A stretch of 32,000 bases of DNA from Moraxella nasicaprae (GCF_025643275.1 NZ_CP089977.1:1860001-1892000), one strand, 5' to 3'. Shown: positions 8,873 to 23,820, counted from the first letter of the stretch. Program-made: numbers and translations. Notes: a model not told the origin generated them from the sequence alone.

Positions 8873-9343
8873 CTAAATAGGCAGTAAATGACTGCGTTTG
8901 ATGGTCTGGACAGGGACTTCGGTTTTAATGTTTAAAACATTTTTGATGTGCGTTAGGTGTCTGACTTGAAACTGACGATAGGATTCTAGGTCTTTGACCA
9001 CCACTTTTAAGACAAAATCACAATCCCCCACCATCAAATAACATTCCTGCACTTCATCAACAAAACGAATGCTGTCCGCAAAGTGATTGACCGCATCTTC
9101 TGTTTGGGTTTTTAGCCACACTCGCACAAATAAGGTCAATCCGCAGTCTAATTTTTCGGCATTGAGCTTGGCGGTGTAGCCTGAAATAAACCCCTGTTCT
9201 TCAAGAATCTTGACACGGCGCAAGCAGGGCGATGGCGATAAACCCACCAGTTCGGCAAGCTGCGTGTTGCTTAGACTGCTGTCTTTTTGCAAGATATTTA
9301 AGATGCGTTTGTCGATTTGGTCGAGTTCCAAAATGCCACTCAT
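8873..9343 (-). CDS. Lrp/AsnC family transcriptional regulator
   Basis: LDQIDKRILNILQKDSSLSNTQLAELVGLSPSPCLRRVKILEEQGFI is the AsnC-type HTH, followed by a RAM domain. It is divergent from azlCD. Confidence 0.9.
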   Translation of the reverse strand: MSGILELDQIDKRILNILQKDSSLSNTQLAELVGLSPSPCLRRVKILEEQGFISGYTAKLNAEKLDCGLTLFVRVWLKTQTEDAVNHFADSIRFVDEVQECYLMVGDCDFVLKVVVKDLESYRQFQVRHLTHIKNVLNIKTEVPVQTIKRSHLLPI

Positions 9344-9500
9344 TACTATATCCTTGAAATTTTATGCCAATAAAAATCATAATGATAAAATATTCTACCA
9401 AAATACGCCATAAAAATCTGCAAAAACGCAATCCAATAGCGTATTATTTGACATACAATGATGACCATCAATCATAGCAAACAAAGTCATTATTATAAAT

Positions 9501-10229
9501 ATGCAAACCACCATCTATACCCCAAATATTGACGCTATCCCAAGCAGCGAAAAAGCTGAATTTTATCGTGGGGCAAAAGACGCCATTCCTGTGATGTTGG
9601 GTTTTATTCCTTTTGCCATGGTGCTGGGTGCATCTGCGGTAGGGGCGGGGTTTAAATGGTATGAACTTGGGCTTTTGACCACCACCAACTTGGCAGGTGG
9701 TTCGGAATTTACTGTCGTCAGCCTTTGGAATAATCCGCTTAATATCGGACTGATTGTTGTGATGGCGACTTTGGTTAATAGTCGCCACATCATCATGGGG
9801 GCAAATTTTTCGCTATTATTAAAGGATATGCCACGCAAAAAAGCATTGGCTTTGCTGTTTGTGATGATTGATGAAAGCTGGGCGATGGCGGTGGCTGATG
9901 CCAAACAATACAATCGCACTCGCCTGAATGTGCCTTATTATTTGGGCGTGGCAGGCGTGCTGTGCTTGACTTGGGCGGTATTCACCACACTAGGTGCGTA
10001 TTTTGCTCCGATGATTGGCGACTTAAAACAGTACGGCATGGACATGGCATTTACTGCTGTATTTTTGGTGCTGCTCAAAGGTATGTGGCAAGGTCTAAAA
10101 CCTGCCGTGCCTTGGTTGGTTAGTCTTGCGGTGGCAGGCGTGCTATATCACACGATTGACGGTGCGTGGTATGTGGCAGGTGGTGCATTGGCAGGCGTGC
10201 TATGTGCATTTTTGATGGAGTGTGAATGA
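9501..10229 (+). CDS. AzlC family branched-chain amino acid exporter subunit
   Basis: Polytopic membrane protein. An AzlC-like N-terminus (FYRGAKDAIPVMLGFIPFAMVLG). It overlaps the downstream AzlD-like gene by 4 nt (ATGA). Confidence 0.8.
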   Translation: MQTTIYTPNIDAIPSSEKAEFYRGAKDAIPVMLGFIPFAMVLGASAVGAGFKWYELGLLTTTNLAGGSEFTVVSLWNNPLNIGLIVVMATLVNSRHIIMGANFSLLLKDMPRKKALALLFVMIDESWAMAVADAKQYNRTRLNVPYYLGVAGVLCLTWAVFTTLGAYFAPMIGDLKQYGMDMAFTAVFLVLLKGMWQGLKPAVPWLVSLAVAGVLYHTIDGAWYVAGGALAGVLCAFLMECE

Positions 10230-10525
10230 TGGAATGGCAAGTGCTTTTAACCATTGTAGCATTGGCACTTAGTACCTACATGACCCGTATTGTTGGCTAT
10301 TTGGCATTCAGCAATCGTACGCTTAGCCCTAGGGCAACTCGTGTGATGCAGGCGGTGCCAGGCTGTGTGTTGATTGCCGTGATTGCTCCCGTGATTGTTT
10401 CTGGTAGCATTGCCAATATGGTGGCGGTGGCAGTTACCTGCCTTGCCATGTTGCGTTTTTCGTTATTGCCAACGGTGTTGATTGCCATTATTGTTACGGG
10501 TGTATTGCGACACTTGGGTTTTTGA
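10226..10525 (+). CDS. AzlD family protein
   Basis: 99-aa hydrophobic protein, translationally coupled to the azlC-like gene. Confidence 0.75.
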   Translation: MMEWQVLLTIVALALSTYMTRIVGYLAFSNRTLSPRATRVMQAVPGCVLIAVIAPVIVSGSIANMVAVAVTCLAMLRFSLLPTVLIAIIVTGVLRHLGF

Positions 10526-10684
10526 GCATGACAGCATTGATAGCATTGTTTCATTACCAATGAAGTAATATTTGTAATATTTATTTACATTTTCTCAACT
10601 GAAAATCATTATCTCATCTCACTATAATAAACTCATTCAAGGCGTGATGCCTTGATGGTTTCACTTAATCATGAGGATAATACA

Positions 10685-11083
10685 ATGAAAAAATTAGCCA
10701 CCATCACAATGATTGCTTTGACTGGACTATCTACCGCTGCATTCGCCGCAGGTGCTCAATCGGACGCCCGTACCGCTCACAAAAATGCCGTCAAAACCCG
10801 CACCGTGACTTATGCTTGTCAAGACCATCAAAAAGTAGCGGTTAAGTATGGCTTTAATAAACGCAACCAGCCAACTTATGCAGAAGCCAATCTAGATGGT
10901 AAGAGACGCTTTATGCCAATCAACTACAACAATAGCGATGCGACTGCTACTGAGTTTGGCGATGAGAATAATTATAGCGTGTTGTCTGATAAGATTACTT
11001 ATAAGACCGCTCGCAAAGGCTCAATCCAAATCCAATCGCCTGACAGCACTATCTTATACAAAAACTGTAAAGCAGTTAAATAA
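10685..11083 (+). CDS. secreted hypothetical protein, possibly MliC-like lysozyme-inhibitor fold
   Basis: Start set at MKKLATITMIALTGLSTAAFA (signal peptide) behind a GAGGA Shine-Dalgarno sequence. The mature part has a Cys near each end (VTYACQD ... YKNCK) and beta-rich spacing reminiscent of MliC. The family call is tentative. Confidence 0.6.
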   Translation: MKKLATITMIALTGLSTAAFAAGAQSDARTAHKNAVKTRTVTYACQDHQKVAVKYGFNKRNQPTYAEANLDGKRRFMPINYNNSDATATEFGDENNYSVLSDKITYKTARKGSIQIQSPDSTILYKNCKAVK

Positions 11084-12998: not shown

Positions 12999-13268
12999 TT
13001 ATACTGCATTTGATGACGAGCATTGTGGGTTTTTGTTCTGATGAATGAGTTGCAAACCAACCAAAGGATCGATTTGTAATGCCTGACAATACCAAACAAA
13101 TTCTACAATATCAAGGCGACGATCACCTTCTTCGACTCGCTGCACATAAGAATGAGGCTTGCCCAATCGCTGGGCAAGCTGTCGCATGGTAAGTCGATGT
13201 TCTAGCCGTTCTTGGCGTAACCAATGGCGAAGGGCTATCATTTCTGAGCTATAAATACTTTTTGTCAT
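12999..13268 (-). CDS. XRE family helix-turn-helix transcriptional regulator
   Basis: LRQERLEHRLTMRQLAQRLGKPHSYVQRVEEGDRRLDIVEF is a typical Cro/C1-type HTH. It is divergent from the WYL regulator. Confidence 0.8.
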   Translation of the reverse strand: MTKSIYSSEMIALRHWLRQERLEHRLTMRQLAQRLGKPHSYVQRVEEGDRRLDIVEFVWYCQALQIDPLVGLQLIHQNKNPQCSSSNAV

Positions 13269-13305
13269 TCGCTATATTTACGATATATTGACAAATTACC
13301 CAAAA

Positions 13306-13343
13306 TGAGTACAATTAGAAAATTTTGTACCTATATTGAGTAC
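13306..13343. promoter_or_regulatory. candidate operator in the XRE / WYL divergent intergenic region
   Basis: Inverted repeat GTACAA-N10-TTGTAC at 13309-13330. Direct repeat TGAGTAC at 13306-13312 and 13337-13343, 31 bp apart. No promoter hexamers assigned. Confidence 0.3.
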
Positions 13344-13441
13344 GATTTTTTTTGGGTGATATTGCTACTAAAAATCATCTTGTTCATCAAGAATGTTATG
13401 ATATATTGATAATTTTATCTTATGAAATAGGAAATCAATCA

Positions 13442-14329
13442 ATGAGCAAATCGCTGCATGAAAAATTGGCATATCGACTGGCGGATATACTAACCATGCT
13501 CAATACTGGCGAGAGTTTATCAGTCGATGATTTGGCACAAAAATATCAAGTCAGTCGCCGAACCATCATGCGAGATATTGATGAGCGTCTGGCGTTCTTA
13601 CCCTTAGAAAAACAAGCGGGTCACTATCGATTGTCGGTGAATTATCTTGGACAGCTAAGCTACAAAGACATTCGCAATTTTGCTCAGATTTCTGGCATTG
13701 CTAAGCTATATCCCAATCTTGATGTTTCTTTTTTAAGAGAGATTTTAGACGAAAGAGCCGCGCAGGTGTATTCGGTCAAAGGCTATACATTTGAAGATGC
13801 TACGCAGTTTGAGGATTTAATTAGCCAAATTAAACAATCAATTCAGGAACAGCGTGAGATTTCTTTTGTATATAAAGGTGGTTCAAGACAGGTCAAACCA
13901 TACCAAATCGTTCATCATCGAGGGTGCTGGTATTTGGCGGCGGTCAAAGATGATGAATTGAAAGCCTATCGCCTAAGCAGAATGAGCAAGCTGTCTATTT
14001 TGGCACAAAAATTTGATGTTCAAACCGAATTTGTAGAACAACTCAAACAAAGTGAGAGTATTTGGTTTGGCAAAAATAAAGTTGAAGTTATCTTAAAAGT
14101 TAACGCAACAGTGGCTGCTCATTTTGCTCAAAGAAAGCTGTTGCCAGAGCAAAAATTAATCAAGGAACTGGATAATGGAGATTTGTTGTTATCTAGTGTG
14201 ATTGTTGATGAAAAACAGATTTTTCCTTTGGTTCGCTATTGGCTGCCGCATCTAAAAATCATCAGTCCAGATGGCTGGCAAGAACGATTGGAAGATGGGC
14301 TAAAAGATTATCTTGGTATGGGAGAGTGA
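13442..14329 (+). CDS. HTH + WYL domain transcriptional regulator (BrxR/CapW-like architecture)
   Basis: N-terminal DeoR-like HTH (LSVDDLAQKYQVSRRTIMRDIDE). Central WYL block (RQVKPYQIVHHRGCWYLAAVKDDELKAYRLSRM). Start trimmed to MSKSL. Confidence 0.85.
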   Translation: MSKSLHEKLAYRLADILTMLNTGESLSVDDLAQKYQVSRRTIMRDIDERLAFLPLEKQAGHYRLSVNYLGQLSYKDIRNFAQISGIAKLYPNLDVSFLREILDERAAQVYSVKGYTFEDATQFEDLISQIKQSIQEQREISFVYKGGSRQVKPYQIVHHRGCWYLAAVKDDELKAYRLSRMSKLSILAQKFDVQTEFVEQLKQSESIWFGKNKVEVILKVNATVAAHFAQRKLLPEQKLIKELDNGDLLLSSVIVDEKQIFPLVRYWLPHLKIISPDGWQERLEDGLKDYLGMGE

Positions 14330-14330
14330 G

Positions 14331-14537
14331 ATGTCATTTATTACCCCTAATATTTCGACGCCAAAGAAGTTTAAATGCACCAGCTGTGGCAAAGTGTACA
14401 CTAAGATGACAGAAGACCCGATGCCTCTACTGCATTTATTTACAAAATCAGATACGCCTCAGGAAGGTAAATGTGATGATTGCAAAAGTCTGACCGAAAA
14501 ACTTCTATCACTGGCAAAGTTTAGTGTGATTCGTTGA
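14331..14537 (+). CDS. small zinc-ribbon-like protein (CxxC...CxxC)
   Basis: MSFITPNISTPKKFKCTSCGK...GKCDDCKS. A GGAGAG Shine-Dalgarno sequence. The ATG lies 1 nt after the WYL gene stop, so the two are translationally coupled. Confidence 0.6.
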   Translation: MSFITPNISTPKKFKCTSCGKVYTKMTEDPMPLLHLFTKSDTPQEGKCDDCKSLTEKLLSLAKFSVIR

Positions 14538-14603
14538 AAGCGGTTGATAGCCAATGTGGTATTGATTATTTTTAGTGGATTAGTGTGGGTGTTTTGATCG
14601 TTC

Positions 14604-14885
14604 ATGATTCCAATGTTGAACATATCAGATTTAACGACATTTCCTTGTACAGCTTGTGGTCAATGCTGTCGACGAATTCATCTTAGTGAAATGACAGCAT
14701 TTTTGGACAGAGGGGACGGTATTTGTCACCATTTGGATTGTCAGACAAATTTGTGTCAGATTTATAATGACAGACCGCTGGTTTGTCGAGTGGAGGACTA
14801 TTATAAAACTTATCTTATCAATCAAATTTCTTGGGAGGAGTTTGTTGACATCAATGTGCAAGTGTGTAAAAACTTGCAAAACTAA
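14604..14885 (+). CDS. YkgJ family cysteine-cluster (Zn/Fe-chelating) protein
   Basis: The CxxCxxCC motif (FPCTACGQCCRR) plus downstream Cys residues (ICHHLDCQTNLCQIYNDRPLVCR) are typical of the UPF0153/YkgJ family. Confidence 0.75.
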   Translation: MIPMLNISDLTTFPCTACGQCCRRIHLSEMTAFLDRGDGICHHLDCQTNLCQIYNDRPLVCRVEDYYKTYLINQISWEEFVDINVQVCKNLQN

Positions 14886-14966
14886 TAGCAGACAAAGTCT
14901 AACCAAATAAAATGAATTTGCATTCTGTAATTGTAAAATTAATTTAATCATGTATAGGAGTTATCT

Positions 14967-15821
14967 ATGAATGCCAAGCAAAGAGTTGAGCGGTTAATCA
15001 AACAGGCTCAGTTAATTTTGAAAGAAAAAAAACATCAATTAGACACAAATAACGAGTCAGAGACCCCTGTTGTTGCAACTTGGGGTTTGATGAACGCAGG
15101 TAAAAGTTATTTGCTAAATATGCTAACTCATAATATTGATAAAGAATATTTTAAAACGAATGACATTAGGGAAACTGCCGAAGTTCATCGACTGGTTGCG
15201 GATGGTTGCGTATTTTTGGACACTCCTGGTTTAGATGCCAATGCCGAAGATAATGCAGAAGCTTTAAAGGGTGTGGCGCAGGCAGATGTGGTGCTATTTG
15301 TTCATCAGCTACAAGGTGAATTAGAGCAGGTAGAAGTTGATTTTCTTAAAGAGGTGGCAAATTCTTTTGGCAAATATGCTTCTGAAAATATCATTATTGT
15401 CATTAGTAAAATTGATAAAGAATCACCAGAAAAAGTTAAAGAAATTCAGGAGAAAATCCTAAAACAATGCCGTGACGAACTAGGATTTTCACCACAATGT
15501 TTTCAAATCTCCAATACTCGCTATCACAAAGGCGAGAAAGAGCATAAAGATGTGCTGATTGAGCAAAGTCATATTTTACTTCTAAGAGACCATATCCAAA
15601 AGCTCATCAAGGAAAATGCTAATCATGTTAGAAAGCAAAGAAAAAATCATAAACTACAACAGTATCAGACTGAATTGGTGGCTATTGAGCGAGAGTTGAA
15701 GCAGTTGCAGACAGAGATATTTACGCCATATTATCAAGCTTTGAAAAAAGTCGATGACCATATCCTTGATGTGATCAGACCCGAAGTCAAAGCTCGTGAA
15801 AAGCAATACAATGAACTATGA
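14967..15821 (+). CDS. minimal dynamin-family P-loop GTPase (G domain plus coiled-coil tail)
   Basis: G1 GLMNAGKS, G3 FLDTPGLDA, G4-like VISKIDK. The C-terminal roughly 90 aa are K/E/Q-rich and helical. AGGAG Shine-Dalgarno sequence. Confidence 0.85.
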   Translation: MNAKQRVERLIKQAQLILKEKKHQLDTNNESETPVVATWGLMNAGKSYLLNMLTHNIDKEYFKTNDIRETAEVHRLVADGCVFLDTPGLDANAEDNAEALKGVAQADVVLFVHQLQGELEQVEVDFLKEVANSFGKYASENIIIVISKIDKESPEKVKEIQEKILKQCRDELGFSPQCFQISNTRYHKGEKEHKDVLIEQSHILLLRDHIQKLIKENANHVRKQRKNHKLQQYQTELVAIERELKQLQTEIFTPYYQALKKVDDHILDVIRPEVKAREKQYNEL

Positions 15822-15833
15822 TGAGAGATTGGT

Positions 15834-16586
15834 ATGTGGAAATATTTACTTGGTGGAAGTATTCCAACTACAACAGCAAGAAACCCTATTGAAGAAAGAA
15901 TTGTTAAAAAAACACTTTCGAGTGTTTTAGGTAATAATGATGGTGATTATGACGACGATGACGGCGAGGATCTTGAAGAGGCACGCCGAGAAAAAGCTCG
16001 TTCAGAGATTTTAACTTCACTAAGTGAATACTTAGAAAAAGAAGGGAATCAGCTGATGAGCATCTTGGTTGAGCAAGGCATTGTTCAGTCGATGGTGTGT
16101 AAGCCTTATGTGGTACCTGCACGTGTTTCACTCTTCGGGTGGTTACCTATAACATTAGGGATGGAGATTAGAGTTTTCACAAATGATAAAAGTGCTCGTG
16201 ATTCATTGCGTGCGAGTGAAGATGTATTTAAACCTTTATCGATCCTCGGTAATGGTAAAAGAATTGAAGAACATTCACTACCAAGTTTTATAGAAAACTC
16301 TATTCAAAACATTGATTTAAATCAAGTATTGGATAAATCAGGCAAAAAATCTGAACTCGGTCGTGTGTTTGCCACTTCTAAGAAGTGGGCGTATTTTGCT
16401 CCCACCAAAGGAGCTGATAACCAGCGATTTATTTTCCAGAGAGTGACTGCCAATTTTTATTCATTGTATGATTGTGTTTTGACACCAACTGATGAATTTT
16501 GTCAGGATATGGAGCTGTTATCCCAGCTTGATGACGCATTGCAAAAAATTGAACAAGAAGTACATCAGATAACTAAATCGGTCTGA
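15834..16586 (+). CDS. paralog family member 1 (no hydrophobic N-terminus; poly-Asp tract; conserved N and C modules)
   Basis: 250 aa. GDYDDDDGEDLEEARREKARSEILTSLSEYLEKEGNQLMSIL ... FIFQRVTANFYSLYDCVLTPTDEFCQDMELLS. No family recognised. Confidence 0.8.
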   Translation: MWKYLLGGSIPTTTARNPIEERIVKKTLSSVLGNNDGDYDDDDGEDLEEARREKARSEILTSLSEYLEKEGNQLMSILVEQGIVQSMVCKPYVVPARVSLFGWLPITLGMEIRVFTNDKSARDSLRASEDVFKPLSILGNGKRIEEHSLPSFIENSIQNIDLNQVLDKSGKKSELGRVFATSKKWAYFAPTKGADNQRFIFQRVTANFYSLYDCVLTPTDEFCQDMELLSQLDDALQKIEQEVHQITKSV

Positions 16587-16622
16587 TGTTCAATACATTT
16601 ATTATCTTTTAGGAGTATAAAG

Positions 16623-17555
16623 ATGGCATTACCATTCTTGATTGGCGGTGCTGTGCTAGTTGGCGGAGCTTTGCTTGCTGCTGCTAGTAGCTCTGGTGGA
16701 AACTATGATGACGACGATGATGGCGAGGATCTTGAAGAGGCACGCCGAGAAAAAGCTCGTTCAGAGATTTTAACTTCACTAAGTGAATACTTAGAAAAAG
16801 AAGGGAATCAGCTGATGAGCATCTTGGCTGAGCAAGGCATTGTTCAGCCGATGGTGTGTAAGCCTTATGTGGCAACCATTAAAAAACCTGATGCATTGTT
16901 GGTTAGAATTTTTTCAAGAGCAAATAATGGCAAGGGTGTCAATTCCCAGAATCAATCAAGAGTTCCAATGCCAAGACGACGCAATCATGAACCAAGATTT
17001 AATGATTGGAATTCATCAATATTAGATCATGGGTTGAATTATGGCGGGAATAGACCAAGACGACGCAATCATGAACCAAGATTTAATGATTGGAATTCAT
17101 CAATATTAGATCATGGGTTGAATTATGGCGGGAATAGACCAAGACGACGCAATCATGAACCAGGATTTAATTATTGGAGTTCATCAATATTAGATCATGG
17201 GTTGATTTATGGTGGGAATAGACCAAGACGACGCAATTATGTAGTTGATGATAGAATTAAAAAAGGTTTGTTATCGGATTTTATCGAGCGCTCCATGACA
17301 CCTAATGAATCGGGCAGCATGTCAGCACTTGGCCATGTTTTTGCTACTTCTAAGAAATGGGCGTATTTTGCTCCAAAAAAAGGAGCTGATAACCAGCGAT
17401 TTATTTTCCAGCGAGTGACTGCCAATTTTTATTCACTGTATGATTGTGTTTTGACACCAACTGATGAATTTTGTCAGGATATGAGATTGCTTTCGAGAAT
17501 TAATACTACTTTGCGGAAAATTTCGCAAGAAACACATCAAACCAAACCGGTCTGA
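16623..17555 (+). CDS. paralog family member 2 (Gly/Ala hydrophobic N-terminus, poly-Asp, 28-aa tandem repeats in centre)
   Basis: 310 aa. MALPFLIGGAVLVGGALLAAASSSGGNYDDDDDGEDLEE... The centre holds 3.2 copies of RPRRRNHEPRFNDWNSSILDHGLNYGGN. The C-terminal module is conserved. AGGAG Shine-Dalgarno sequence. Confidence 0.85.
   Translation: MALPFLIGGAVLVGGALLAAASSSGGNYDDDDDGEDLEEARREKARSEILTSLSEYLEKEGNQLMSILAEQGIVQPMVCKPYVATIKKPDALLVRIFSRANNGKGVNSQNQSRVPMPRRRNHEPRFNDWNSSILDHGLNYGGNRPRRRNHEPRFNDWNSSILDHGLNYGGNRPRRRNHEPGFNYWSSSILDHGLIYGGNRPRRRNYVVDDRIKKGLLSDFIERSMTPNESGSMSALGHVFATSKKWAYFAPKKGADNQRFIFQRVTANFYSLYDCVLTPTDEFCQDMRLLSRINTTLRKISQETHQTKPV
16971..17237 (+). repeat. in-frame 84-bp tandem repeat, about 3.2 copies, inside paralog 2
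   Basis: Units start at 16971, 17055, 17139 and 17223 (partial). Units 1 and 2 read identical by eye. Unit 3 has a handful of substitutions. Confidence 0.9.
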
Positions 17556-17591
17556 TGTTCAATATATTTATTATCTGTTAGGAGTATAAAG

Positions 17592-18320
17592 ATGCCATTA
17601 CCATTATTGATTGGCGGTGCTCTACTTGGCGGAGCTTTACTTGCTGCTGGTAGCTCTGGTGGAAACCATGACGACGATGACGACGAGGATCTTGAAGAGG
17701 CACGCCGAGAAAAAGCTTGTTCAGAGATTCTAACTTCACTAAGTGAATACTTGGAAAAAGAAGGGAATCAGCTGATGAGCATCTTGGCTGAGCAAGGCAT
17801 TGTTCAGTCGATGGTGTGTAAGTCTGATGTGGCAACCATTGGAAAGCCTGATGTATTGTCGGTTAGAATTTTCGCAAGAAATAATCGGCGTGCCAATACT
17901 CCAATTTCATCTCCATCAGTATCTGGTGCATCATTTGGTTTTGCCGTTAATAGTATCTTTGGTGTCCTCCTTGGTAACTCGACTCAAAAAATCAAAGAGT
18001 ATTCACTGTCAAGTTTTATAGAAAACTCTATTCAAAACATTGATTTAAATCAAGTATTGGATAAATCAGACAAAAAATCTGAACTTGGTCGTGTGTTTGC
18101 CACTTCTAAGAAATGGACGCATTTTGCTCCAAAAAAAGGAGTTGATACTCATCGATTTATTTTCCAGCGAGTGACTGCCAATTTTTATTCACTGTATGAT
18201 TGTGTTTTGACACCAACTGATGAATTTTGTCAGGATATGGAGCTGTTATCCCGGCTTGATGACACATTGCAAAAAATTAAACAAGAAGTACGTCAGATAA
18301 ATAAATCTTTAATACATTGA
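17592..18320 (+). CDS. paralog family member 3 (Gly/Ala hydrophobic N-terminus, poly-Asp)
   Basis: 242 aa. MPLPLLIGGALLGGALLAAGSSGGNHDDDDDEDLEE... The centre is unique or mosaic. The C-terminal module is conserved. AGGAG Shine-Dalgarno sequence. Confidence 0.85.
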   Translation: MPLPLLIGGALLGGALLAAGSSGGNHDDDDDEDLEEARREKACSEILTSLSEYLEKEGNQLMSILAEQGIVQSMVCKSDVATIGKPDVLSVRIFARNNRRANTPISSPSVSGASFGFAVNSIFGVLLGNSTQKIKEYSLSSFIENSIQNIDLNQVLDKSDKKSELGRVFATSKKWTHFAPKKGVDTHRFIFQRVTANFYSLYDCVLTPTDEFCQDMELLSRLDDTLQKIKQEVRQINKSLIH

Positions 18321-18341
18321 TTATCTTTTAGGAGTATAAAG

Positions 18342-18938
18342 ATGCCATTACCATTATTGATTGGCGGTGCCGCTCTACTTGGTGGAGCTTTGCTTGCTGC
18401 TGCTAGTAGCTCTGGTGGAAACTATGACGACGATGATGACGGCGAGGATCTTGAAGAGGCACGCCGAGAAAAAGCTCGTTCAGAGATTCTAACTTCACTA
18501 AGTGAATACTTAGAAAAAGAAGGGAATCAGCTGATGAGTGTCTTGACTGAGCAGGGTATTCTTGAACCAACCTCATGCTCGTTTGAGACAGATGATATCG
18601 ACTTAGATGATGAGTTGGAAATCTGTGTTTTTGATAGAGATGACATGAAGGAAAGTCAATTTGAGCTACTCCTTGATGAAGCCATTGAAGACATGGATCA
18701 TTATAGAGATCATGAAGTCAATCTCTTTAAGCAGACGATTCGTTACAAATATCTTAATAGAATTCAGCCCGATGCCCAATCTGTATTTCAAAGAGTGTCG
18801 GTGAACTTTTATTCATTGTATAAAAATTCATTGTATAGCAATGGTTTTACACTCACTGAGGAGTTTCGCCAAGATATGAGATTGCTGTCAAAAATTGATA
18901 AAGAGCTATACAAAATCAAACAGCAGGCCGACACCTAG
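18342..18938 (+). CDS. paralog family member 4 (Gly/Ala hydrophobic N-terminus, poly-Asp, acidic divergent centre)
   Basis: 198 aa. Same N-terminal module. The C-terminal module has diverged (VFQRVSVNFYSLYKNS...LTEEFRQDMRLLS). Confidence 0.85.
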   Translation: MPLPLLIGGAALLGGALLAAASSSGGNYDDDDDGEDLEEARREKARSEILTSLSEYLEKEGNQLMSVLTEQGILEPTSCSFETDDIDLDDELEICVFDRDDMKESQFELLLDEAIEDMDHYRDHEVNLFKQTIRYKYLNRIQPDAQSVFQRVSVNFYSLYKNSLYSNGFTLTEEFRQDMRLLSKIDKELYKIKQQADT

Positions 18939-18973
18939 GCGAATTATTAAACTAAATCTCTTGGGAGGATAAA

Positions 18974-19492
18974 ATGTCCCTTAGTGCAAAAGAAGCTCAA
19001 ATATTATTAGACGAATACTTGGAGATGAGCAAAAGGCAATTGATGGATATTTTATCCAGCCATGGGATTGCTCAGCCAAGGCAATACACTTCCGCTGTCC
19101 AACTTTCTGAAAATCGTCATCGGTCTTTATTTGACAGAAATGATAAAAATGAAATATTTGGCGTATCGTTAGAAAGAACGATTGTGGAGATTAGCCGAGT
19201 TATTGAAACCAGTCGTGCCATCGATGCTGTTTCAGGTGCCACCTTTGATGATGATATTCTTGATGGTACTGATGATTATGCTTATCGATATTTTTTAAAC
19301 ACCATTGCTGACTCTCAACGATGGTCGCATCTTAATTTACTAAAAAGCGATGCTCAACGACTTTTCCAAAGAGTGATTTTTAATTTTGGTGTGTTGTATG
19401 AATCTGGTTTGGTACTAACAGATGAATTCTTACAGGACATCAGATTGCTTTTGGAAATCAATGACCTGCTAAAAGAAATTGCTGGTTCTTAG
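18974..19492 (+). CDS. paralog family member 5 (most diverged; lacks the hydrophobic and poly-Asp N-terminus)
   Basis: 172 aa. It retains only the cores EYLE..QLM.IL...GI.Q and LFQRVIFNFGVLYESGLVLTDEFLQDIRLLL. GGGAGG Shine-Dalgarno sequence. Confidence 0.8.
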   Translation: MSLSAKEAQILLDEYLEMSKRQLMDILSSHGIAQPRQYTSAVQLSENRHRSLFDRNDKNEIFGVSLERTIVEISRVIETSRAIDAVSGATFDDDILDGTDDYAYRYFLNTIADSQRWSHLNLLKSDAQRLFQRVIFNFGVLYESGLVLTDEFLQDIRLLLEINDLLKEIAGS

Positions 19493-19523
19493 TGATGATT
19501 TAAACAATAAAGAGGTATATATT

Positions 19524-21356
19524 ATGACACAACATACAATATTTAGAGAGCAGATGTTGGAGACTTTTGAAAATCTCAAGCAGGATTTTGCTCAAGCCTT
19601 AAAAGATGCTAAGCAACAAGAGCAAAATTTTGATACAGCTCTCAATCAATTTCAAAAAAATACTTTGGCTCATATTGCCAATTCCAGCAGTCAGCTTTCA
19701 TCAGAAAACCCACTATCGCCAGCCTTGCAACAAATCAATGCAACCTTGCAAAGCACCATTGGTAAATGGAATGAAAAAATTCAGCAGCAGGATAAGGGCG
19801 TAGGTTTTCGTTCTGGCTTCAATGATTCTTTATTGGTATTTGTGTATGGTAAAGTAAAGTCGGGAAAAAGCTCACTGGGCAACTATGTGGCGTGGGGCAA
19901 TACAGATCCAACACCTGAATTGCAAAAAAGTATTGATGTCAGATTTCACCCAGAATATTTTTCTGGCGAAAGAGCTGAATTTAAATATGGAGATGCGGAG
20001 CGAGAAGCTGAAAAAAATAAAAGTTTCCGTGTCGGTGCAACAGAAGCAACCAGTTCAATCCAGGGTTTTAGCTTGTCGGGTTTGACTTGGGTGGATTCTC
20101 CAGGTCTGCATTCGGTCAATGCTCAAAATGGTGATTTGGCAAAACAGTATGTTGAGCATTCGGATTTGATTTTGTACACCATGAAGTCCGATTCTCCGGG
20201 CAGGGAGTCGGATATCAGGGAGATTTTGGAGCTGTATAGAGCGGATAAAAAAATCCTACTACTTATCACAGGCAGTGATGATACAGATGAAGATGTCAAT
20301 AGCAAGGGTGAATTGGTTCAAGTCATTGTGATGAAAGACAAGGAACGCCGCCAAAGACAAATCAATCATGTGCGAGAGACTTTGGAGAAATTGCCAGAGT
20401 TGCAAGGTAAGACAGATAATATTGATATCATTTCTTTTTCTGCCAGATATGCACAGATGAACGCGGATAATGCGGTCAATTTCCATGACAGCGGCATGGG
20501 GCAGTTGTTTGAAAAATTACACCAAGTTGCCAGTGAAGAGGGTGTTAAATTAAAACAAAAAGTTCCTATGTTGAATTTCAAGCACTACATTAACGGCTTT
20601 GCCCAAGATGTCAGTGATATTGAGACTGCATTAGAAGAATTGCACCAACCGATTCAAAGAATCCAAAGAGAAGTTCCTAGATTGGTGGGCGATGAAATTA
20701 GACACATTCAATCTACCATGTATGATATTTTGCATGAAAGATTTGATGCCATCATTGCCAATCGAGAAGATAGTGCAAGCCAGGTGGAAGCTGCATTAAA
20801 TCAATTGCAAGCAACGCTACAAGAAAAGCACAATCAGCTATTTGATGAATCGCAGACCAAAATCATTACTCAGATATTATCTGAAATGGAACAAGGATTG
20901 ACCGACAGCATCAAGAACAATGCAACTTTGAGTATTCCTAAGTTTCAAATTGAGACTGTAAGAGTGGCAGAGGGTAAATATGTGGCTGGCAACAGAGGCT
21001 CCAGTGCGGCGATAGGTGCGGCAACAGGTGCAGCGATTGGCTCGGCGATACCTGTGGTGGGTACAGCCATAGGTGGTTTTGTCGGCGGTTTTGTCGGTGG
21101 TCTCTTGGGTAGGTCTTCCCGCAGGGAGACAAGGTATGTCTATGAGCGTTCTGGGGATAATCTGATGTCCATTCGCCAAGCCATCAGTAGTCAACTTCAA
21201 GACATCACCAGAGAGCATATGGGAGAGTTTCAGCAGGTGTTGATAGAGAGAACTCTAAAAACAGCCACAGATTTGCAGTTAAGCATTGAGCAAGAAATTG
21301 GGTTGTTCAAAAGTGCTGTAAATAATATTCAAAACGAGATTGAGGCAAAATTGTAA
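19524..21356 (+). CDS. dynamin-like GTPase with helical stalk and Gly-zipper membrane paddle (LeoB/LeoBC-like)
   Basis: G1 VYGKVKSGKSS, G3 WVDSPGLHS, G4-like LLITGSDD. Long helical regions. Hydrophobic Gly-rich segment GSSAAIGAATGAAIGSAIPVVGTAIGGFVGGFVGGLLG. Start set at MTQHTIF behind an AGAGG Shine-Dalgarno sequence. Confidence 0.88.
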   Translation: MTQHTIFREQMLETFENLKQDFAQALKDAKQQEQNFDTALNQFQKNTLAHIANSSSQLSSENPLSPALQQINATLQSTIGKWNEKIQQQDKGVGFRSGFNDSLLVFVYGKVKSGKSSLGNYVAWGNTDPTPELQKSIDVRFHPEYFSGERAEFKYGDAEREAEKNKSFRVGATEATSSIQGFSLSGLTWVDSPGLHSVNAQNGDLAKQYVEHSDLILYTMKSDSPGRESDIREILELYRADKKILLLITGSDDTDEDVNSKGELVQVIVMKDKERRQRQINHVRETLEKLPELQGKTDNIDIISFSARYAQMNADNAVNFHDSGMGQLFEKLHQVASEEGVKLKQKVPMLNFKHYINGFAQDVSDIETALEELHQPIQRIQREVPRLVGDEIRHIQSTMYDILHERFDAIIANREDSASQVEAALNQLQATLQEKHNQLFDESQTKIITQILSEMEQGLTDSIKNNATLSIPKFQIETVRVAEGKYVAGNRGSSAAIGAATGAAIGSAIPVVGTAIGGFVGGFVGGLLGRSSRRETRYVYERSGDNLMSIRQAISSQLQDITREHMGEFQQVLIERTLKTATDLQLSIEQEIGLFKSAVNNIQNEIEAKL

Positions 21357-21366
21357 CAGGTGTATC

Positions 21367-23004
21367 ATGACTAATGATTTTCAAGAATTGTTCAACACTT
21401 ATGACGATGTCAAGGCTCTTGTTGAAAAAGATGATAGTCAGCAACAGGATTTTGGGTCTGTCGCTAAGTGGTTTGAAGAAAAAAAGAAAAATCCTCAACT
21501 GTCCATCATGGTTTATGGGGTTTATAATGCTGGTAAGAGTACTTTTATCAATGCATTGCTCGGAGAAGAATTGGCAGCTACCGACGACATTCCGCTAACT
21601 GCCAAAGTATCTGCATATCGGTATAAAAATTATGAGATTTTAGACACACCAGGCATTGATGCACCCATTGAACATGAAAGAATTGCTGATGAGCAGTTAC
21701 TAAAATCTGACATTGTTTTGTTTGTTGTCAATCCATCAGGTGTGGTGGAGGAACAGGCAACGCTTGATAAGCTATTGTTTTTAATTGAAAAGCAAAAAAA
21801 GATTTTTTTGATTTTTAATGAAAAGCACGACTTGCAAGAGACGGATCGTATCAAATTAAAAGATCAAACTTATGCCCTAATACAGGAAAAGGCTGGTCAA
21901 AAAAATATGCATGATGTGCTTAAAGACATTCCAATTTATACCGTAAATGCAAAGCGTGCATTAAATGGTAAAAAGAAAAATAATACTCAGCTGATTGAAA
22001 TGAGTCGTATTTTGGAGGTTGAGCAAGCGATAGATAGATTTATTGATGACACTATTGAGTCTAATGATGTTTATTCATCACTTAAAACCAGTTTGCATAA
22101 TTATTTAGATGGATATATCAATCATCTGGATATTACAAACAATAGTGATGATGTCAAGAAAGCGTATAATAATGTTTTAAAAGAAATTGCTACCTGCAAT
22201 GCATCAGTCAAAGGACTGGCTAAGAGAGATATTAAAGATGCATCTTATGAATTAAAAGAACGGGTTGAAAGCTTGCTTTTATCTGCATTAAGTGGTGAAA
22301 ACGCCAATATGGAACAGCAGATTGAAGGGTTGATTAACCAACAAGTTCAGCGTGTAGATATGAGCGTCACAGATGCATTGAATGATGCAATTTTACGCAT
22401 TGGTAAATATACTGATGAATTAGAATTAATGCTTCCACAGACTTCCAGTCTAAATATTCGATTGGATAATTTTAGCCCCAATCATGATTTAGAGAAATCA
22501 TCTACTGCTTATGATGGTACTGGGATTAACACATCGTTATTGCAAAGCGGTATGCATATCATTGATCAGTTGGGCGTTGAGGGCATTCGTCAATCGCTTG
22601 CTGGCATTAAGATGATTGCACCAGATTTAATGAAAGGAATTGGCAATGTTGCCATGAAAAGAATGGCTGAGAATATTGTTAGATTTGCAGCCCCTATTGT
22701 TAGTGTTATTTCCATTGGAATGGAATTATGGAATGAACACAAGCAAAGAGAGGCGATGGAAAGACAGATGGAGGAGGAAAGACGAGCTAGAGAAAGATAC
22801 ATAGCTCAATGCCGAGATGCATCTAGAAAGTTGGCTGATGATTTTCAGATGAATCTATATCGGGAGTGGCAAAGCCAGATAGATGGATTTTTCCTACCAT
22901 GGCAACAAAAATTTCAAGAACAAAATGAGATTTTAGATGGTGAAAGTCAAGAATTGTCTTTGTTGATTATGCAGCTAAGTCAGTTAAAGGCGAAATTGGC
23001 ATAG
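21367..23004 (+). CDS. dynamin-like GTPase (LeoA-like)
   Basis: G1 VYGVYNAGKST, G3 ILDTPGIDA, G4-like IFNEKHD. Helical stalk. Hydrophobic segment IVRFAAPIVSVISIGMELW followed by a charged coiled-coil tail. Start set at MTNDFQ, 10 nt after the previous stop. Confidence 0.88.
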   Translation: MTNDFQELFNTYDDVKALVEKDDSQQQDFGSVAKWFEEKKKNPQLSIMVYGVYNAGKSTFINALLGEELAATDDIPLTAKVSAYRYKNYEILDTPGIDAPIEHERIADEQLLKSDIVLFVVNPSGVVEEQATLDKLLFLIEKQKKIFLIFNEKHDLQETDRIKLKDQTYALIQEKAGQKNMHDVLKDIPIYTVNAKRALNGKKKNNTQLIEMSRILEVEQAIDRFIDDTIESNDVYSSLKTSLHNYLDGYINHLDITNNSDDVKKAYNNVLKEIATCNASVKGLAKRDIKDASYELKERVESLLLSALSGENANMEQQIEGLINQQVQRVDMSVTDALNDAILRIGKYTDELELMLPQTSSLNIRLDNFSPNHDLEKSSTAYDGTGINTSLLQSGMHIIDQLGVEGIRQSLAGIKMIAPDLMKGIGNVAMKRMAENIVRFAAPIVSVISIGMELWNEHKQREAMERQMEEERRARERYIAQCRDASRKLADDFQMNLYREWQSQIDGFFLPWQQKFQEQNEILDGESQELSLLIMQLSQLKAKLA

Positions 23005-23010
23005 TGTCTA

Positions 23011-23043
23011 TACAACAGCAGCATTTTGCTGCTGTTGTATTTT
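23011..23043 (+). terminator. rho-independent terminator closing the GTPase operon
   Basis: 12-bp perfect stem: tacaacagcagc pairs with gctgctgttgta. The loop is 5 nt and TTTT follows. Confidence 0.85.
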
Positions 23044-23145
23044 AACATGAGATTAGTTATTTGAATGAAGTCAAGGGTTTGTTATGGCATGAGATGTATT
23101 GATTGTAATGCCTAGCAGAACATATTCAATCCAACAGGAGGTATC

Positions 23146-23790
23146 ATGACATTGGAAATTTCCCAGTTTTATCAAGATAATCGCCATCAATATCCACAAT
23201 CCATTCGTCTGCGTATCCATCGTGCATTAAGTTGGCTTGAACAAGCTGAGCGTAGTGACGATTTGGATAGTAGATTTATTTTCCTATGGATTGCGTTTAA
23301 TGCCATTTATGCCAACGATTTATCACACATCAGAAATACCGACAAAGGGGCTTTTGTTGAGTTTTTATATCGCATTTGTCAGTTCGATGTGGATAGTAAA
23401 ATCTATCATTTGATTTGGAATACATATTCTGGCAATATCCGTGTATTACTGGATAATCGTTATACTTTTCAGCCTTTTTGGGATTATCAAAATGGGTTGA
23501 TTAGCGAAAGGGCGTGGCAAGAGGATTTTGAGCTTAGTCAAAAAAAGGCCTATAACGCACTTGCTAGCAAGGATACGGTTGTTATTTTGACGGCTTTATT
23601 TTCGCATATTTATACATTGCGTAATCAGATTGTGCATGGCGGAGCGACACATCATAGTTCTGTCAATCGCCAGCAGGTCAAAGATGCTTGTGCAATTTTA
23701 TCTCGGATTTTGCCATTCATGATTGAAATTATTTTGCAAAATGCGGACAGGGATTGGGGTAAGCCTTTTTATCCTGTGGTTCAAGATTGA
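23146..23790 (+). CDS. HEPN-domain protein (putative RNase; Rx4H motif)
   Basis: 214 aa, all-helical-looking. N-terminal RIHRALSWLEQAE and FIFLWIAFNAIY helices. C-terminal YTLRNQIVHGG is an R-x4-H HEPN signature. AGGAGG Shine-Dalgarno sequence. The HEPN subfamily is not assigned. Confidence 0.7.
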   Translation: MTLEISQFYQDNRHQYPQSIRLRIHRALSWLEQAERSDDLDSRFIFLWIAFNAIYANDLSHIRNTDKGAFVEFLYRICQFDVDSKIYHLIWNTYSGNIRVLLDNRYTFQPFWDYQNGLISERAWQEDFELSQKKAYNALASKDTVVILTALFSHIYTLRNQIVHGGATHHSSVNRQQVKDACAILSRILPFMIEIILQNADRDWGKPFYPVVQD

Positions 23791-23820
23791 CATTTGGGAA
23801 TGCTTGTACCATCATTCAAT

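Follow-up and report, generated by a model that had tools for sequence, protein, structure and literature searches.

An extended, multi-gene variant of the Eleos dynamin-like system predicted in Moraxella nasicaprae and its relatives

The order of the genes and the similarity of their products to known profiles suggest that Moraxella nasicaprae carries a previously undescribed, widely conserved, multi-gene variant of the Eleos system. The window analyzed here is a stretch of 32,000 nucleotides (nt) from this organism (GCF_025643275.1, NZ_CP089977.1:1860001-1892000). It contains a run of genes encoding three GTPases, designated G1, G2, and G3, with five paralogous small proteins of an accessory family, Acc, encoded between G1 and G2. 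Eleos consists of two GTPases, LeoBC and LeoA (Millman et al. 2022; the name is from Cury et al.), and G2 and G3 resemble these two proteins. Judged from sequence, anti-phage defense is the most likely role of the cassette, a reading that is held with moderate confidence.

The second and third GTPases correspond to the Eleos pair. G2 matches the LeoBC profile of PADLOC (PADLOC-DB release of 2023) at 4.9e-20 over residues 22-608 (model positions 7-566 of 601), and G3 matches the LeoA profile at 4.6e-38 over residues 22-506 (model positions 38-524 of 559). A preliminary description of this DNA had proposed an Eleos/LeoABC-like core, and these nearly full-length matches bear it out. The translations also agree with the motifs that it quoted for three P-loop GTPases, namely GLMNAGKS, DTPG, and SKID in G1, GKVKSGKS, DSPG, and TGSD in G2, and GVYNAGKS, DTPG, and NEKHD in G3, and the P-loops are intact in all three. 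G2 and G3 both have the architecture of bacterial dynamin-like proteins (DLPs), with a Pfam Dynamin_N domain (1.2e-09 in G2 and 4.6e-15 in G3), full-length coverage of the Leo profiles, and hydrophobic segments. The segment of G2 is a glycine-zipper membrane paddle at residues ~495-530, with a hydrophobic stretch at 502-529 (hydropathy 1.71) and a Gly-zipper_Omp score of 27.2 bits against a cut-off of 25, and that of G3 lies at residues 437-455. In sequence searches of the PDB, G2 had no match, G1 and G3 hit generic G domains of the Era/Der type, and G3 also matched LeoA (4aur), Cj-DLP, and BDLP weakly.

The cassette differs from Eleos in the number of conserved genes. In Bacillus vietnamensis the two-gene system confers protection against AR9 and PBS1, both jumbo phages, its defense requires both P-loops, and Eleos adjoins defense systems in 60% of cases (Millman preprint). 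The M. nasicaprae cassette shares with it the adjacent LeoBC-like and LeoA-like genes, in the same order and here 10 nt apart, the intact P-loops of both proteins, and the occurrence of some of its relatives in defense islands. However, four to six further families are conserved with the pair, comprising a stalk-less third GTPase (G1), Acc, a YkgJ protein, a Zn-ribbon protein, a WYL regulator, and often a HEPN-like protein. Since G1 and Acc accompany the pair in all 18 complete related loci and YkgJ does so in 14 of the 17 that could be assessed, the cassette is filed as a variant of Eleos rather than as a plain member. As had been claimed, neither the published two-gene Eleos nor the LeoABC system of enterotoxigenic Escherichia coli (ETEC) has this third GTPase or the small-protein family, and the genes for the WYL, Zn-ribbon, YkgJ, and HEPN proteins are missing from both as well. 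No description of the extended architecture, with G1, Acc, YkgJ, and Zn-ribbon proteins as Eleos components, was found in profile libraries or in the searchable literature, which left subscription-only papers outside reach. Literature queries for dynamin with YkgJ, dynamin with WYL, S-4TM with GTPase, and LeoBC returned nothing that matches the architecture of the cassette.

The arrangement G1-Acc-G2-G3 is conserved over a wide range of bacteria. The 18 loci are independent and complete (loci are labeled L001-L036 and so on), and they represent at least ten genera plus plasmids. They come from Acinetobacter (two contexts), Conchiformibius, Buttiauxella, Lelliottia, Azonexus, Acidovorax, three Pseudomonas, Achromobacter, six metagenomic lineages, and IncF conjugative plasmids of Klebsiella. 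Without exception, one or more small genes separate G1 from the G2- and G3-like genes that come next. Linkage of the paralog family to the GTPases in other genomes had been set beforehand as a refutation test, and it is present in every related locus examined. With the partners that are not part of the four-gene core in parentheses, the conserved order is (WYL)-(Zn-ribbon)-G1-Acc-G2-G3-(YkgJ)-(HEPN-like) in Gamma- and Betaproteobacteria and on the Klebsiella conjugative plasmids. Identity between the window and Acinetobacter is 51% for G1, 45% for G2, 38% for G3, 49% for the WYL protein, and 62% for YkgJ, while for Acc it is ~20-35% and confined to short stretches. By this comparison Acc is the fastest-evolving member of the cassette.

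Individual loci show further features. The copy on the Klebsiella quasipneumoniae plasmid NZ_CP084791.1 (L034, 70540-75599) is a four-gene G1-Acc-G2-G3 core without YkgJ, and the plasmid copies carry the RefSeq labels GTPase, hypothetical protein, dynamin family protein, and GTPase. Among the records inspected, the four-gene core is found on IncF conjugative plasmids of Klebsiella and Raoultella; the matching records also include Citrobacter. The Lelliottia cassette had no blastn match in E. coli complete genomes. In one Acinetobacter genome (L031, 11407-13265) G2 is split into open reading frames (ORFs) of 392 and 227 amino acids, a sign of decay. In Pseudomonas sp. PDM04 (L012, 15051-16178) a fourth GTPase of 375 amino acids, with MMR_HSR1 and DUF697 domains, directly follows YkgJ, and a large RNase_H-like SF1 helicase and an ankyrin-repeat protein are encoded upstream.

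G1 consists of a G domain of the LeoA type with helices on either side and no stalk. With 284 amino acids it does not have the architecture of a bacterial DLP, because the trunk and paddle are absent. It matches the PADLOC LeoA profile at 4.9e-28 over model positions 16-288 of 559, which is the N-terminal half only. The AlphaFold2 model (mean predicted local distance difference test, pLDDT, 89.8) shows a complete G domain between an N-terminal helix and a single C-terminal helix of 80 residues, and there is no hydrophobic segment (maximum Kyte-Doolittle value 0.88). Homologues of G1 fall into 346 clusters with lengths of ~275-292 amino acids. Among PDB structures, Foldseek ranks the mitofusin-1 minimal domain, GIMAP7, Campylobacter DLP1/2, Toc34, LeoA, and IniA highest; the match to GIMAP7 has an E-value of 8.4e-08 with a TM-score (template modeling score) of only 0.45-0.5. 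The score against Pfam AIG1 (PF04548) is 25.7 bits, just under the cut-off of 27. What G1 shares with the mitofusin minimal domain, GIMAP (AIG1) proteins, and Toc34 is a G domain placed between N- and C-terminal helices. However, their sequence identity to G1 is 15-20%, and the profile closest to G1 is the N-terminal half of LeoA.

The LeoABC operon of ETEC, located on the tia pathogenicity island, resembles the cassette in that it has three GTPase-related ORFs and encodes a LeoA-like protein together with a LeoB(C)-like DLP that contains a membrane segment. The third ORF is of a different kind, however. In ETEC the G domain is split between two proteins: LeoC supplies its N-terminal half, with the P-loop and switch 1, and terminates in a transmembrane segment, and LeoB completes the domain (PMC4159319). 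G1 has all of the motifs G1-G4 and a long coiled coil but no transmembrane segment, and G2 is unsplit and has its own P-loop. An equivalence of G1 with LeoC is ruled out by the complete G domain of G1 and its lack of a transmembrane segment. Acc, YkgJ, and WYL are not described in LeoABC. When LeoAB is deleted, vesicle-associated Tat-GFP and OmpA fall by half, and LeoA is recovered in the periplasmic fraction (PMC4159319), so the cassette could be a membrane-vesicle, secretion, or virulence module in which the GTPases drive outer-membrane vesicle release and Acc proteins are cargo adaptors or periplasmic factors. M. nasicaprae is host-associated, and the N-terminus of Acc could in principle be an export signal. 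However, this N-terminus has no basic n-region, and in several orthologues basic residues come after the hydrophobic segment. The cassette also occurs in Pseudomonas, Acidovorax, and Azonexus from soil and water and beside restriction-modification (R-M), BREX, and McrBC systems, and its WYL regulator and HEPN partner are typical of defense loci. A role of the LeoABC kind is unlikely on this evidence.

The five small proteins of the window belong to the widespread, fast-evolving Acc family. The Acc proteins of the related loci (150-250 amino acids) begin with an N-terminal MPLPWLIG-type hydrophobic anchor rich in Gly and Ala, which an acidic linker of Ser and Asp connects to a helix with many charged residues (R/E/K). 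A middle part that varies comes next, and the protein ends in a helical module. When 17 single-copy Acc proteins were compared with the five window paralogs by hhalign, the C-terminal modules aligned with a probability of 97.8% (E = 7.7e-13) and the N-terminal anchors with a probability of 91.7%. Gene position, architecture, and this profile-profile comparison overturn the idea that the paralogs are a lineage-restricted orphan family. A word-indexed search of 5.8 billion proteins with the paralogs returned self hits only, exhaustive HMMER searching added only a handful of weak hits, and a metagenome scan at the Joint Genome Institute (JGI) with the paralog profile found nothing. No model for Acc exists in Pfam, NCBIfam, or PADLOC.

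The gap between G1 and Acc is typically ~10 nt and the two genes overlap in L036, suggesting translational coupling. The tight coupling, together with the single N-terminal hydrophobic helix of Acc and the highly charged region behind it, would also fit abortive infection in which Acc is a toxic, holin-like effector that the three GTPases restrain or trigger, the paralogs being alternative effectors. In some loci the HEPN partner points to a suicide strategy. On the other hand, the anchor is missing in two of the five window paralogs and in the first copy of every multi-copy relative, Pfam and PADLOC reveal no likeness of Acc to known toxins or holins, and the conserved helices at its C-terminus look like a module for interactions. 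It is improbable that Acc is the toxin.

Most loci have one Acc gene, and the five-copy array of M. nasicaprae is a clade-specific expansion. A single copy is present in 14 of the 18 loci, while the closest relatives of the window, whose G1 proteins are 57-61% identical, have two (L024 and L035) or three (L036); five copies are found only in M. nasicaprae among the loci examined. The array between the GTPases that was described at the outset is therefore real in this genome but is not the conserved state. The five proteins are true paralogs, with a mean column identity of 49% in the alignment, conserved N- and C-terminal modules, and a variable middle, and the DNA of the array contains repeat families of 264-300 nt with up to 92% identity. 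P2, P3, and P4 resemble one another more closely in the N-terminal module than in the C-terminal one, which fits recombination or gene conversion between copies. P2 contains an in-frame 84-nt tandem repeat at 16971-17241 with 3.2 copies and 96% matches, the first two copies being identical. The repeat encodes the 28-residue unit RRRNHEPRFNDWNSSILDHGLNYGGNRP and is a very recent expansion within the variable middle of one paralog.

The paralogs had all been described as anchored, which is correct for P2, P3, and P4; P1 and P5 lack a hydrophobic N-terminus. The first Acc copy is unanchored in all four multi-copy loci and has a Pro/Thr-rich N-terminus like that of P1, while the later copies of the relatives are anchored. 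The aromatic, Pro/Thr-rich N-terminus of this subtype reads MWKYLLGGSIPTTT or MGFWDIFS..IPPTT. A conserved division of labor between soluble and anchored Acc copies is likely. A gene encoding 192 amino acids 5' of G1 in L024 was considered as a third Acc copy and ruled out (hhalign probability 1.6%).

The two unanchored copies, the recent repeat expansion in P2, and the restriction of five copies to M. nasicaprae could mean that the array arose by recent duplication, is neutral and decaying, and has just one functional copy. However, all five ORFs are intact, each with a Shine-Dalgarno sequence, and the unanchored P1 type has been kept as the first copy in three other lineages. The junction P4-P5-G2 is preserved at 99.2% identity in an independent sample (L038). 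In addition, dN/dS is ~0.2-0.5 in the terminal modules at dS values of up to 0.6 or more, the middles being saturated, so these modules are under purifying selection. Decay is thus a very improbable explanation of the array.

The eight genes from G1 to G3 lie close together on one strand, up to a strong terminator (Table 1). The preliminary description had placed eight same-strand genes separated by 10-36 nt here, and translation and gap measurement agree; the gaps are 12, 36, 36, 21, 35, 31, and 10 nt in order. Shine-Dalgarno sequences of the GGAG/GAGG type precede seven of the eight genes and that of P1 is the weaker GAGAG, also as described. The first strong terminator is just 3' of G3 (-22.9 kcal/mol, z = -5.2), in agreement with the earlier account, and the candidates found upstream of 23010 by a consensus scan are all short, weak, and intragenic.

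Table 1. Features of the cassette in the window, and unanchored first Acc copies of related loci (positions within each locus)
Feature	Position	Strand	Description
XRE-family helix-turn-helix (HTH) gene	12999-13268	-	89 aa (amino acids); Pfam HTH_3 3.2e-08, HTH_31; PADLOC HTH_VI 5e-08
Sigma-70-like promoter match	13288-13315	+	TTGACA-16-TACAAT, 11/12, 5' of WYL gene
HTH-WYL-WCX regulator	13352-14329	+	Pfam WYL 1.1e-12, HTH_11 4.3e-09, weak WCX 0.0017; PADLOC WYL 1.2e-30
Small Zn-ribbon protein	14331-14537	+	68 aa; CxxC ... SD ... CxxC
YkgJ / CxxCxxCC protein	14604-14885	+	93 aa; Pfam PF03692, 30 bits vs cut-off 23
G1	14967-15821	+	284-aa stalk-less GTPase
Acc paralog P1	15834-16586	+	250 aa; unanchored first copy, Pro/Thr-rich N-terminus
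Acc paralog P2	16623-17555	+	310 aa; N-terminal anchor, internal tandem repeat
Acc paralog P3	17592-18320	+	242 aa; N-terminal anchor
Acc paralog P4	18342-18938	+	198 aa; N-terminal anchor
Acc paralog P5	18974-19492	+	172 aa; no anchor, no acidic linker
G2	19524-21356	+	610-aa LeoBC-like DLP
G3	21367-23004	+	545-aa LeoA-like DLP
Intrinsic terminator	~23010-23040	+	14-bp stem, then UUUU
HEPN-like protein	23146-23790	+	214 aa; own Shine-Dalgarno sequence, 3' of terminator
Unanchored first Acc copy, L024	2064-2654		
Unanchored first Acc copy, L035	1310-1978		
Unanchored first Acc copy, L036	1558-2238		

The functional unit extends beyond the eight genes. The limits 14967-23004 that had been given are correct for the eight genes but too narrow for the unit, which reaches from ~13.3 to 23.8 kb (13288-23790) on account of the recurrent partners, the promoter-like site 5' of the WYL gene, and the low-GC span. 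The divergent XRE gene possibly belongs to it as well. The promoter-like site has the top score of the region as a consensus match only. GC content is 37-40% over the cassette (13-23.8 kb) against 43-47% in the flanks (SulP and mnmA), and the coding strand has a consistently positive GC skew from 13000 to 23800, in keeping with horizontal acquisition. Scans of the window for tRNAs and Rfam families were empty, so no such element marks the borders of the cassette.

The genes upstream of G1 encode regulators and small cysteine-cluster proteins. The WYL protein has an N-terminal HTH followed by WYL and WCX domains, an architecture like that of BrxR and CapW, and its true start is likely the methionine of MSKSL at ~13442. 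A WYL gene is found within 3 kb 5' of G1 in about half of the loci, and homologues lie directly 5' of G1 in L001, L005, L007, L008, L013, L027, L030, and L032. In L027 the WYL gene is preceded by a divergent HTH gene similar to that of the window, suggesting that the cassette may have two regulators. The Zn-ribbon protein has invariant P, P, CxxC, SD, and CxxC positions in the alignment; its motif is found in at least ten related loci, with BLAST homologues 5' of G1 in L035 and L036. Homologues of YkgJ (41-68% identity) are encoded directly after G3 in the 14 loci mentioned above. The upstream position that had been reported for YkgJ thus holds in M. nasicaprae, where this gene and the Zn-ribbon gene have been relocated 5' of G1, but not in relatives. 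No PADLOC model claims YkgJ or the Zn-ribbon protein.

The HEPN-like protein is a recurrent partner. It contains the motif YTLRNQxxHGGAT (Rx4H), in which R159-x4-H164 is invariant in five homologues, and it scores 20.5-24.5 bits against Pfam HEPN_RiboL-PSP, under the threshold of 28.4. A PDB sequence search gave no informative match. It had been placed downstream of the eight genes, which is true of M. nasicaprae, where it follows the terminator, but the arrangement is different in close relatives. In L024 and L035 homologues that are 65-66% identical begin 10-18 nt after YkgJ on the same strand and are co-operonic. The gene also adjoins the cassette in L027 and L011. In L027 it is split in two (15372-16009), a sign of decay.

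Several related cassettes are found beside known defense systems. Defense neighbors are clear in L001-3, L028, L030-31, L033, and L034; those of the chromosomal relatives include type I R-M with McrBC, BREX with GmrSD, and a Bsp6I R-M system. The neighbors on the L034 plasmid are an S-4TM putative pore-forming effector, a TrlF ATPase, a GNAT/DUF1778 toxin-antitoxin pair, and IS26. The suggestion of a defense-island context is therefore sound for these relatives (R-M, McrBC, and BREX) but not for the window itself, which has no multi-system defense island. A neighborhood of AsnC, AzlC/AzlD, and Nm-ACP flanks the cassette in both the window (8873-11083) and L024 (7965-11074), on opposite sides; the window cassette is 3' of Nm-ACP and SulP, while that of L024 is 5' of AsnC. 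The difference in placement means that the cassette moved or was re-inserted within one chromosomal neighborhood.

The distribution of the cassette bears on whether it could be a general envelope-stress or membrane-repair system like Bacillus subtilis DynA, not specific to phages, in which Acc would mark or stabilize damaged membrane. DynA and Campylobacter DLP1/DLP2 are paired bacterial DLPs that act at the membrane, and DynA aids phage tolerance. DynA is reported to gather in clusters where the membrane is damaged and to delay lysis by phages (PMC8844932, PMC12998192). The glycine-zipper paddle of G2 and the Acc anchor would suit such a task. However, the known systems are housekeeping or paired-only, without a third GTPase, an anchored accessory family, or regulator and effector partners. 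The patchy, island-like distribution of the cassette, with low GC and with copies on conjugative plasmids, also speaks against this reading, and a housekeeping repair system would not be expected to combine subunits that diverge quickly with a HEPN partner and a WYL regulator. The chance that the cassette serves general repair is small.

Several observations weigh against a role in anti-phage defense. The window cassette is flanked by housekeeping genes (alaS, lysC, purB, SulP, mnmA, and ispF), and housekeeping neighbors are also found in several related loci (L004, L005, and L008). The association of ETEC LeoABC with vesicle release and a periplasmic location means that the family can have non-defense readouts. 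Acc orthologues look conserved within a genus, so the variability is long-range rather than strain-level hypervariability. The AlphaFold2 model of P3 is poor (pLDDT 53), with moderate confidence only in helices 32-67 and 186-241, and the interactions and topology of Acc have no structural support. The absence of relatives from IMG/VR viral contigs is neutral for the defense reading, and on the same result a phage-borne origin was set aside.

The architecture, the operon coupling, and the charge pattern around the Acc anchor lead to a proposed mechanism for anti-phage defense. G2 and G3 would form a GTP-driven membrane-remodeling engine, as in Eleos, and G1 may regulate or nucleate them through heterodimerization of G domains. 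G1 and Acc would form a stoichiometric complex, their genes being ~10 nt apart or overlapping, and Acc would tether the complex to the inner membrane. There are no basic residues ahead of the anchor and K or KK behind it in several orthologues, a pattern that favors a cytoplasmic C-terminal part. The Gly/Ala-rich anchor may pack against the glycine-zipper paddle of G2. The variable middle of Acc could set the trigger or specificity, and extra paralogs would widen the range. The part of adaptor, sensor, or cargo that had been suggested for the small proteins is likewise putative. The WYL protein would repress the operon until infection or stress, and the HEPN-like protein, where present, may be an added, optional RNase effector.

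A more speculative version of this proposal, with a lesser though not negligible chance of being correct, is that G1 and Acc together constitute a split, membrane-anchored mini-mitofusin or atlastin that acts as the sensing and nucleating arm of Eleos-type immunity. G1 would provide the G domain and part of the neck, and Acc would provide the other helices and the anchor. The variable cytoplasmic module of Acc would recognize the trigger and recruit LeoBC and LeoA for action on the membrane. The Moraxella array might then be a germline repertoire of interchangeable subunits that grows and shuffles by unequal crossing-over between the conserved 5' and 3' gene modules.

The extended Eleos cassette is relevant to the fields of phage defense and bacterial dynamins. 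Its extra parts are genetically separable handles on the sensing, membrane targeting, and output of Eleos. They comprise a regulator, a third GTPase, a fast-diverging and usually anchored partner, two small cysteine-cluster proteins, and an optional HEPN effector. The natural series of one, two, three, and five Acc copies is a ready-made experiment on whether specificity is determined by this subunit. The cassette is present in clinically relevant hosts, including Acinetobacter, Pseudomonas, and the IncF conjugative plasmids of Klebsiella. Finally, bacterial GIMAP- or mitofusin-like small GTPases that work with dynamins would be of interest for eukaryotic cell-autonomous immunity.

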